Numbered from the stretch's first letter, positions 10,152 to 11,320 are shown. The stretch: DNA of 64,000 nt from Escherichia coli (GCF_001677475.2 NZ_CP015229.1); one strand, 5' to 3'. The notes: generated by a model not told the origin, from the letters alone. Translations and numbers: made by a program.

Positions 10152-10847
10152 ATGCAACAATATACGCGTTTTTTTATTATTTTTTTGTTATATGCCATGT
10201 CAGGAAATGTTTTTGCTGATATCAGAAAAAACACAGGAACTATTGACCCCGATTATATTAATCTCAGTGCGCAGGAATTTTTGTCATTTTATGCTCGTGG
10301 AACGTCACAGGAAAAAGAAAATGTTCTGATGTATGTCCTTGGTGTGAGTGATGCGACAGAAAGTAAAACCTGGTGTGGATATAATAAGATTAATGAAATA
10401 GAACTTTATTCATCGGTACTGACATATCTTAATCAGCAGTCGGTTAACGATATGAATATGCGAGCTTCAACTCTGATTGAACAAGCGATGGTCAGGCTGT
10501 TTCCCTGCCCGGATATGGCATCACCGGAAAAAAAATCTCCCCGGCAGTCATCTGTTTCACACCTGACCTCTGGCGCGTTCGATCTGAACGGAGATGATTT
10601 TTTCCGCTTCTGGCAGTCAGATAACAGGCAGGATAGGCTTAATGCGAAAATCTATCTTTTGGGTATAGAAGATGCCACGGAAAGAAAAACATGGTGCGAT
10701 TATAAAACGATTAAAACAGTTACACTGGATGAGATTATTTACTGGTATTTCAGAAAAAAAACGTCAGATAAACTGAATGAACGGGCTGCAAATATTATTA
10801 TTGAGGCACTAAGTAAACACTCCTGTGATAAAGGAAATAATAAATGA
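10152..10847 (+). CDS. Periplasmic tandem-repeat protein; candidate immunity for downstream Tae4-like effector
   Basis: Signal peptide; two internal ~95-aa repeats (YVLGVSDATESKTWCGYNKI / YLLGIEDATERKTWCDYKTI); AT-rich; stop overlaps next start. Confidence 0.45.
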   Translation: MQQYTRFFIIFLLYAMSGNVFADIRKNTGTIDPDYINLSAQEFLSFYARGTSQEKENVLMYVLGVSDATESKTWCGYNKINEIELYSSVLTYLNQQSVNDMNMRASTLIEQAMVRLFPCPDMASPEKKSPRQSSVSHLTSGAFDLNGDDFFRFWQSDNRQDRLNAKIYLLGIEDATERKTWCDYKTIKTVTLDEIIYWYFRKKTSDKLNERAANIIIEALSKHSCDKGNNK

Positions 10848-11320
10848 AACCTTCATTTTTCACACTTAAAAAAAAACATTACTCATCAGTTCAGATTGAT
10901 GGTGATGTTTTGTACAGTGAAGTGGGTTATAACTATGAAGCACTGCAACAGCAAAATGCTGGTTATGTAAATACCTGTGCCACACGTATGAGTCTGGCGC
11001 TGATTAAATCAGGCGTCAGCTTTAACGGGCGACTGACGATCAAAAGTGGTGACTGGAAAGGGAAGAAAATAGAAACCGGTGCGAAATTACTGGCAGATCA
11101 GCTTTCCCGAGCTGATGTTTTTGGAAGACCAGTTATCTGGTGTGACTCAGAAAAATTTAAAACAGACACCAGTAATAAAAGAGGAGTGGTCTTTTTCTGG
11201 AAGATTACGGGTTACGGTGGCGGTCATATTGATCTTATTGAGCCTTCTACCACAGGTGCTATATGTCATTCACATTGCTATTTTAGCTGCAAGGAAATCT
11301 GGTTCTGGGAACTGAATTAA
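10844..11320 (+). CDS. Tae4-family-like peptidoglycan amidase T6SS effector (candidate)
   Basis: 158 aa; NTCATRMSLALI... and ...GGGHIDLIEPS... resemble Cys/His motif regions of Tae4 as I recall them; no signal peptide. Confidence 0.55.
   Translation: MKPSFFTLKKKHYSSVQIDGDVLYSEVGYNYEALQQQNAGYVNTCATRMSLALIKSGVSFNGRLTIKSGDWKGKKIETGAKLLADQLSRADVFGRPVIWCDSEKFKTDTSNKRGVVFFWKITGYGGGHIDLIEPSTTGAICHSHCYFSCKEIWFWELN

Follow-up and report, generated by a model that had tools for sequence, protein, structure and literature searches.

What is gained when a single peptidoglycan-cutting effector is paired with an immunity protein built from two similar modules? The question is raised by a cassette at positions 10,152–11,320 of a 64,000-nucleotide stretch of Escherichia coli DNA (GCF_001677475.2, NZ_CP015229.1; hereafter the window, meaning the whole stretch analysed), where an immunity gene and an effector gene lie within a type VI secretion system (T6SS) cluster, between the core gene tssM and the accessory gene tagF. 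The locus is, in our reading, probably a translationally coupled immunity–effector cassette whose immunity protein is a single-chain pseudo-dimer of two Rap1a domains, the C-terminal (C) domain likely being the main inhibitor. The stop codon of the immunity gene and the start codon of the effector gene share the four bases ATGA (10844–10847), an overlap that is the usual sign of translational coupling.

By sequence comparison the downstream product, of 158 amino acids (aa), is a Tae4-family amidase/DL-endopeptidase of the Ssp1 subgroup, matching the full Pfam Tae4 model (PF14113) at E = 1.1e-15, Serratia marcescens Ssp1 (PDB accession: 4bi3) at E = 2.4e-57 with 58% identity, and A. tumefaciens Tae4 (6ijf_C) at E = 4.9e-21. 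Effector residues Cys45 (motif NTCATRMS), His128 (motif GGGHIDL) and Asp130 align with Ssp1 Cys50, His133 and Asp135, and Cys141 and Cys145 align with Ssp1 Cys146 and Cys150; in an alignment with Ssp1 and six relatives these five catalytic and cysteine-pair positions are invariant, save that a C-terminally truncated open reading frame (ORF) of locus L011 lacks the last two. The N-terminus is hydrophilic and carries no leader peptide. The Ssp1-like group comprises 425 database proteins at E ≤ 1e-10, and a scan of the effector and immunity proteins against NCBIfam matched no family.

The immunity protein begins with MQQYTRFFIIFLLYAMSGNVFA, read by eye as a Sec-type leader with cleavage before Asp23 and without a lipobox cysteine; Rap family proteins carry classical Sec leaders identified with SignalP (PMC3533786), and that of Rap1a is 26 residues long (PMC3852654). 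The Pfam Rap1a family (PF18602) matches twice, at aa 49–119 (E = 1e-10) and aa 154–223 (E = 3e-9), and the internal repeat is far beyond chance, since its halves share 31% identity in an ungapped alignment of 80 residues (BLASTP E = 1e-18). No separate signal peptide precedes the second domain, whose alignment to mature Rap1a starts from the first ordered residues of the latter. Sequence searches of the PDB matched aa 131–228 to solved Rap1a (3zfi) at E = 5e-26 and aa 60–121 to A. tumefaciens Tai4 (6ijf_A) at E = 2e-7; the canonical Tai4 chains (E. cloacae and S. Typhimurium Tai4, Rap2a, Rap1b and Rap2b) were absent from the PDB sequence matches up to E = 1, and also from the 50 PDB matches that Foldseek listed, a list with all 7 of the significant ones in it. 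The Rap1a or ‘Tai4a’ fold has been set apart from that of the same canonical proteins (PMC3852654), and, judged by these matches and by the predicted structure, it is the fold of both immunity domains, the partner of Serratia Ssp1, with the canonical Tai4 fold excluded.

An earlier note on this DNA had described a leaderless, Tae4-like ORF with Cys and His regions, an upstream ORF with a signal peptide and two internal repeats, and an AT-rich pair set between GC-rich tssM and tagF, and these descriptions are borne out by the matches, intact catalytic residues and putative leader above and by GC contents of 0.34–0.45 in the cassette against 0.56–0.65 in tssM and tagF. Its comparison with Tai4 stood in so far as Tae4-type immunity is concerned, through the matches to 3zfi and 6ijf, and fell for canonical Tai4, to which neither the sequence search nor Foldseek gave a match.

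A protein search returned six homologues (98, 58, 52, 51, 48 and 47% identity), all with two domains and with a reading frame continuous through both, and two-domain homologues span Escherichia, Enterobacter, Salmonella and metagenomes. The seven-sequence alignment has 61 invariant positions over both domains, including all four cysteines, which match the Cys78–Cys122 disulfide of Rap1a and are predicted to pair likewise here; 32 of the 61 fall to the N-terminal (N) domain, among them both of its cysteines and Ala22, the single invariant leader residue. When the domains are split and compared across distinct homologues, N–N identity (42–82%) and C–C identity (44–81%) lie far above N–C identity (23–34%), so that the duplication predates the window's family. 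The C domain is 42–48% identical to ordinary single-domain Rap1a proteins (48% to Serratia Rap1a), and for the N domain no single-domain relative exceeds 38% identity. Comparison with the allele of E. coli A20 gives ratios of non-synonymous to synonymous substitution rates (dN/dS) of 0.15 (N domain), 0.12 (C domain) and 0.18 (effector). Each ratio comes from small counts, 2.5 to 10 replacement changes, and the values suggest purifying selection on both domains. The gene with its two domains is real, old and maintained.

Rap1a itself is a stable obligate homodimer, with helix α2 as the major contributor to an interface in which 20% of each subunit is buried; each dimer takes up two Ssp1 molecules, whose active sites are blocked by α4 and the α4–α5 loop (PMC3852654). 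The Tai4 protein of A. tumefaciens is also an obligate, α2-mediated homodimer binding two effectors (PMC6277958). Since Rap1a is an obligate homodimer, a tandem repeat of it is most simply a covalently linked dimer, a point absent from the earlier note. When the published Rap1a residues were mapped onto both domains of seven family members, the 15 dimer-interface positions proved to be the best-conserved class in both domains, with a majority-residue fraction of 0.90 in the N domain and 0.82 in the C domain and an identity to Rap1a of 0.76 and 0.65, respectively, against 0.66 and 0.69 (majority residue) and 0.32 and 0.42 (identity to Rap1a) at all other positions. The blocking segment is kept in the C domain, where KTVTLDE corresponds to QTVTLQE at Rap1a 84–90 and K84, T87, L88 and E90 are invariant; the N-domain counterpart of Rap1a 81–94 is variable among orthologues (majority fraction 0.53, identity to Rap1a 0.17).

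In an AlphaFold2 model of the 209-aa mature chain each domain consists of five helices, and the model has a predicted local distance difference test score (pLDDT) of 91.8 and a predicted template modelling score (pTM) of 0.90, the latter value pointing to a fixed inter-domain packing; the linker between the domains has low pLDDT and tolerates substitutions. Foldseek superposes the C domain on Rap1a 3zfi_B with a template modelling score (TM-score) on the target of 0.96 and a root mean square deviation (rmsd) of 0.8 Å, and AlphaFold database (AFDB) entries for an identical E. coli protein (A0AAI9B5G9) and for homologues in Salmonella enterica match the full model along ∼205 residues, with TM-scores on the query of 0.93–0.98 and rmsd of 1.1–1.6 Å.

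In the mechanism that we propose, the T6SS cluster (E. coli SPI-6-like, i3; SPI-6, Salmonella pathogenicity island 6) would fire the Tae4 cysteine amidase into neighbouring cells, where the effector would cut the peptide stems of peptidoglycan in the periplasm of those struck. The immunity protein would be exported by Sec, each domain forming a disulfide and adopting the five-helix Rap1a/‘Tai4a’ fold, and the two domains would pack via the same α2 surface as the stand-alone Rap1a homodimer, yielding a single-chain pseudo-dimer that blocks the Cys–His cleft of effector delivered by sister cells. The C domain, with the Rap1a blocking helix, would be the likely main inhibitor and the N domain would keep the dimer surface; as the effector-facing segment of the N domain has drifted, one effector rather than two may be bound. 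Domain architecture, family membership, distribution among genomes and the pattern of conservation are shown by the sequences themselves; toxicity, protection, stoichiometry, asymmetry and the intramolecular dimer belong to the proposal.

A number of points weigh against this mechanism. That the predicted packing is equivalent to the crystallographic Rap1a dimer is something we infer from the model, and AlphaFold may simply be transferring homodimer covariation onto a tandem chain. A single-chain model of the form effector–(G4S)6–immunity–(G4S)6–effector docked neither effector (pLDDT 73.5, pTM 0.40, from a shallow, partly chimeric 18-row alignment), an outcome that carries no information on binding. 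The N domain retains Tyr50, Lys58 and Glu59, which are Ssp1 contacts in Rap1a, and could therefore have kept the ability to bind an effector. Identification of the signal peptide was by eye alone, and the whole reading is computational.

Across the window and relatives of the cassette, the immunity-then-Tae4 pair was met in four genomic positions. It lies between tssM and tagF in the window; in Escherichia sp. E1V33 and Enterobacter sp. ENT03 its place is between tssL and tssM, on a metagenomic contig it comes after tagF, and at locus L008 (described below) it adjoins housekeeping genes. Exactly one Tae4 gene lies directly downstream in the relatives examined (nine loci inspected), a pattern that takes in two independently duplicated lineages (by sequence or Pfam); the downstream ORF of a third such lineage was not identified. 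One Tae4 at each locus argues against a lost second effector, an idea that the earlier note had raised, and this candidate was rejected.

A profile search of 1.84 billion representative proteins gave 248 Rap1a-family clusters (50% identity) at E ≤ 0.001, and among the best 150 of these two domains occur in 13 (∼9%) and three in none, while a further member is a fragment that spans a domain junction. In one tandem protein (P0010), where the next ORF encodes an Ssp1-like Tae4, the halves share 67% identity; the figure is 61% in another (P0153), encoded in the arrangement hcp, tandem-Rap1a, single Tae4, and 51% in a third (P0014). In both P0010 and P0153 the halves are each other's closest relatives, so that at least two recent, independent internal duplications have occurred besides the old one of the window's family. 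The repeat unit is itself an obligate homodimer and never exceeds two copies in those best 150 clusters, which favours a covalent dimer over an array of indefinite length. The earlier note's view of the arrangement as unusual is thus only half right: tandem Rap1a accounts for about 9% of family clusters, has arisen several times and occurs in a pair that RefSeq annotates. A description of tandem or fused Tai4/Rap1a, of its recurrence or of asymmetric conservation of the halves was not found in the open-access literature. A scan with peptide patterns derived from the immunity alignment found 2 loci in 100,044 species genomes; it undercounts because the patterns are narrow, and the AFDB revealed Salmonella homologues.

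The pseudo-dimer has to be set beside a bivalent ‘polyimmunity’ protein, in which the C domain would neutralise the co-encoded Tae4 and the N domain another Tae4 variant from competitors, as in the ‘broadened protection’ of the earlier note. Fused immunity domains directed against several toxins are an established idea (PMC3482391), and extra Rap genes in Serratia and other species are thought to protect against foreign Tae4 (PMC3852654, PMC3533786); the N domain, only 26–35% identical to the C domain, without a close single-domain relative and variable in its effector-facing segment, would fit an arms race, although within E. coli it seems to evolve under purifying selection. Bivalence does not account, however, for the peak of conservation at the dimer-interface residues of both domains or for the compact, confidently predicted packing, and the same architecture stands beside one effector in fresh tandems whose halves, at 61–67% identity, can hardly have two specificities yet. 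We therefore consider it rather unlikely as the explanation of the tandem, while noting that it is compatible with the pseudo-dimer and does not exclude it.

Far less probable is that the N domain is mere ballast, left by an accidental fusion of two immunity genes or by the loss of a second effector. Serratia Db10 does have separate rap1b and rap1a genes in its ssp1 locus (PMC3533786), so that neighbouring rap genes able to fuse exist, and the N domain is more diverged from Rap1a than the C domain is; but the missing second signal peptide and the uninterrupted frame of all homologues speak against a relic, as do the N domain's share of the invariant positions (32 of 61), its two retained cysteines, its dN/dS of 0.15, and the failure to see a second Tae4 gene in any of the four genomic positions. 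That the 231-aa ORF is two genes joined by an error of sequencing or assembly can be set aside almost entirely: the assembly of E. coli E04 does annotate two short Rap1a ORFs and a truncated Tae4, but nine other complete E. coli genomes (99.2–99.3% and 93.9%) annotate a single immunity gene and one Tae4, the 231-codon ORF is intact in both RefSeq loci inspected, and the more distant homologues (Escherichia sp., Enterobacter sp., Salmonella, metagenomes) agree, leaving E04 as the outlier. An assembly artefact was rejected on the intact ORF in other E. coli genomes and in divergent homologues. Beyond the pseudo-dimer itself, it is a tentative and on balance doubtful suggestion that repeated conversion of the Rap1a homodimer to a single chain frees its halves, one blocking the resident Tae4 while the other retains the dimer surface alone and explores new effector-facing sequences, towards asymmetric or bispecific immunity.

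Table 1. Positions of the cassette, its protein domains, its junctions and its flanking genes in the window.
Feature	Position	Strand	Basis and remarks
tssM (upstream core T6SS gene)	6039..9905	+	ORF; RefSeq annotation of homologous locus
Left junction copy	9868..9958	+	tssM end intact, then decayed tagF start with 10-bp deletion; BLAST against 2012C-4221, alignment, repeat families D2 and D6
Low-GC insert with immunity–effector pair	9959..11474	+	GC profile; presence/absence among E. coli genomes
Immunity gene	10152..10847	+	ORF, 231-aa precursor; RefSeq name ‘Rap1a/Tai family immunity protein’ at 99.3%-identical locus
Putative Sec-type signal peptide, aa 1–22	10152..10217	+	Read from sequence; Ala22 invariant in seven homologues
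N-terminal Rap1a-fold domain, aa 23–124, Cys75 and Cys119	10218..10523	+	Hidden Markov model domain envelopes
Inter-domain linker, aa 125–133, core of PDMASPEKKSPRQS	10524..10550	+	pLDDT ∼66; replacement changes concentrated here
C-terminal Rap1a-fold domain, aa 134–231, Cys182 and Cys225	10551..10844	+	47–48% identity to Rap1a; Foldseek; segment conservation
Effector gene	10844..11320	+	ORF, 158 aa; RefSeq name ‘T6SS effector amidase Tae4 family protein’
Right junction copy	11475..11572	+	Decayed tssM 3′ end, then intact tagF start; BLAST against 2012C-4221, alignment, repeat families
tagF (downstream T6SS accessory gene)	11506..12276	+	TIGR03373 E = 4e-10, slightly below cut-off; RefSeq ‘TagF domain-containing protein’

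The surroundings of the cassette (Table 1; RefSeq places the tagF start at the ATG at 11509) fit those of a cargo slot. Salmonella SPI-6-type (i3) clusters contain variable regions for periplasm-acting effector–immunity modules, one of them downstream of tssM (PMC10469887, PMC12994826), and the tssM–tagF locus is its E. coli counterpart. A scan of 9850..11600 for promoters and terminators gave fewer promoter-like sites than shuffled sequences and no convincing terminator, and the cassette is probably transcribed by read-through from tssM.

The cassette is rare within the species, being carried by 10 of 5,426 complete E. coli genomes, nine at 99.2–99.3% identity and the tenth at 93.9%. A query running from the tssM 3′ end to the tagF 5′ end matched 114 complete E. 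coli genomes, of which 104 are without the insert; these match only about one quarter of the query, and the 15 among them that were listed cover the tssM and tagF flanks only. At the one empty-site locus inspected, that of E. coli 2012C-4221, tssM and tagF overlap directly, and the insert is flanked by an imperfect direct duplication, about 90 base pairs (bp) long, of this ancestral junction of tssM stop and tagF start. Both copies keep intact the half that belongs to the adjoining gene, the redundant half having decayed. From this pattern we infer that the cassette may have entered by a crossover within the tssM/tagF junction, or that selection kept both formerly overlapping genes whole; the duplication hints at the route by which cargo enters the tssM–tagF slot. 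For the variant carried by Escherichia sp. E1V33, megablast gave no match in complete E. coli genomes. The patchy spread within E. coli, together with the four genomic positions in relatives, is that of cargo modules moving between the slots of SPI-6-type clusters.

Individual loci add detail. In E. coli E04 (NZ_CM143912.1; positions 1053–2219 of locus L004; 99.2% identical) the two short Rap1a ORFs measure 137 and 62 aa and Tae4 is truncated at its N-terminal end, which may reflect either frameshifts in A-rich runs or genuine decay. In E. coli A20 (NZ_CP028755.1) tssM is annotated as frameshifted (a pseudogene) and the adjoining immunity and Tae4 genes are intact, with dN/dS of ∼0.2, which suggests that the pair may persist after loss of the firing apparatus. 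A metagenomic locus (L008, positions 611–1778; JGI metagenome 3300048926) holds a tandem-Rap1a and Tae4 pair, its immunity protein 48% identical, among genes for a DeoR-type regulator, a HAD hydrolase, a BrkB-family protein, a D-Tyr-tRNA deacylase and an acetyltransferase; no T6SS gene was seen within 6.3 kb, making this an orphan copy outside a cluster.

Other slots of the window's cluster also hold low-GC gene pairs. Between tssL and tssM, a gene for a ∼227-aa protein (5072–5755), without a Pfam or NCBIfam match, is followed by an overlapping gene for a 95-aa hydrophobic protein (5752–6039), and the two may be an uncharacterised effector–immunity pair; in E. coli 2014C-3338, whose Tae4 cassette is 99.3% identical, this slot is occupied instead by a tlde1-domain gene and a hypothetical gene. 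A stretch of ∼40 bp past the tssL stop is conserved between loci with different cargo (window 5061–5103; L001 5905–5948; the N-terminus of P0004) and reads in frame as ‘M.K.LECN..NHS’ at the start of unrelated ORFs (the window ORF starting at 4940/5072, the 263-aa ORF of L001, and P0004), whose long N-terminal extensions are probably over-called starts. A third low-GC pair of overlapping genes lies in the gap between tagF and vgrG: the product of 12343–13044, 233 aa long, contains an HEAGH (HExxH-type) motif and matched nothing significantly in Pfam or NCBIfam, and that of 13041–13427 is a 128-aa protein with a hydrophobic, leader-like N-terminus. The equivalent genes of a related strain are hypothetical in RefSeq, and the pair is a candidate metallopeptidase effector with its immunity protein. 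Downstream of vgrG, ORFs of 147 aa (15689–16132) and 1,380 aa (16153–20295) occupy positions named in a related strain's RefSeq annotation as a DcrB-related protein and an RHS repeat-associated core domain protein; this is the Rhs-type variable region of the T6SS cluster.

The effector–immunity pair is in itself nothing new, both proteins being already named in public annotation. The tandem immunity architecture offers a small, testable case of protein evolution, in which a symmetric homodimeric inhibitor would have become a covalent pseudo-dimer several times independently, its halves free to specialise. Should the N domain prove to have a second specificity, or the stoichiometry to have shifted from 2:2 to 1:1, the family would show bacteria tuning or widening their self-protection in T6SS arms races; a bispecific single chain would widen the T6SS immunity repertoire without a new gene, and structural biologists would have a natural single-chain Tai4a for engineering. 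The relevance is modest and lies with specialists in T6SS and protein evolution.

Among characterised systems the closest is Ssp1–Rap1a of Serratia marcescens Db10 (PDB accessions: 4bi3, 3zfi, 4bi8; English 2012, Srikannathasan 2013), with an effector 58% identical that shares the catalytic Cys, His and Asp and the disulfide pair, and an immunity protein 47–48% identical to the C domain, which it resembles in its five-helix fold, its disulfide and the blocking-helix motif; each pair lies among core T6SS genes. Rap1a differs in being a single-domain protein of ∼125 aa that binds two Ssp1 molecules as a homodimer, whereas two diverged domains here form one chain behind one signal peptide; the immunity gene here lies upstream of the effector gene, and the effector lacks five residues of the Ssp1 α1–α2 loop, including Tyr17, which stacks on Rap1a Tyr50. 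The Tae4–Tai4 pair of A. tumefaciens (6ije, 6ijf) has a Rap1a-type fold, with an α2 homodimer, a Cys80–Cys124 disulfide and a 2:2 heterotetramer (PMC6277958), and its Tai4 is the only solved protein that a sequence search matched in the N domain; it is, in contrast, single-domain and only 22–24% identical in structural alignment. Canonical Tae4–Tai4 pairs (S. Typhimurium and E. cloacae, with Serratia Rap2a, Rap1b and Rap2b) have in common with the cassette the effector superfamily, a periplasmic, dimeric immunity role and an SPI-6-type variable region, but their immunity proteins have a fold of their own, with a protruding loop instead of a blocking helix (PMC3852654). Polyimmunity proteins (Zhang, de Souza, Anantharaman, Iyer and Aravind 2012; PMC3482391) likewise join at least two immunity domains in one polypeptide, here two of the Rap1a family; they are mainly of the SUKH, SuFu and Imm families, act against cytoplasmic toxins, and have been read as polyvalent.

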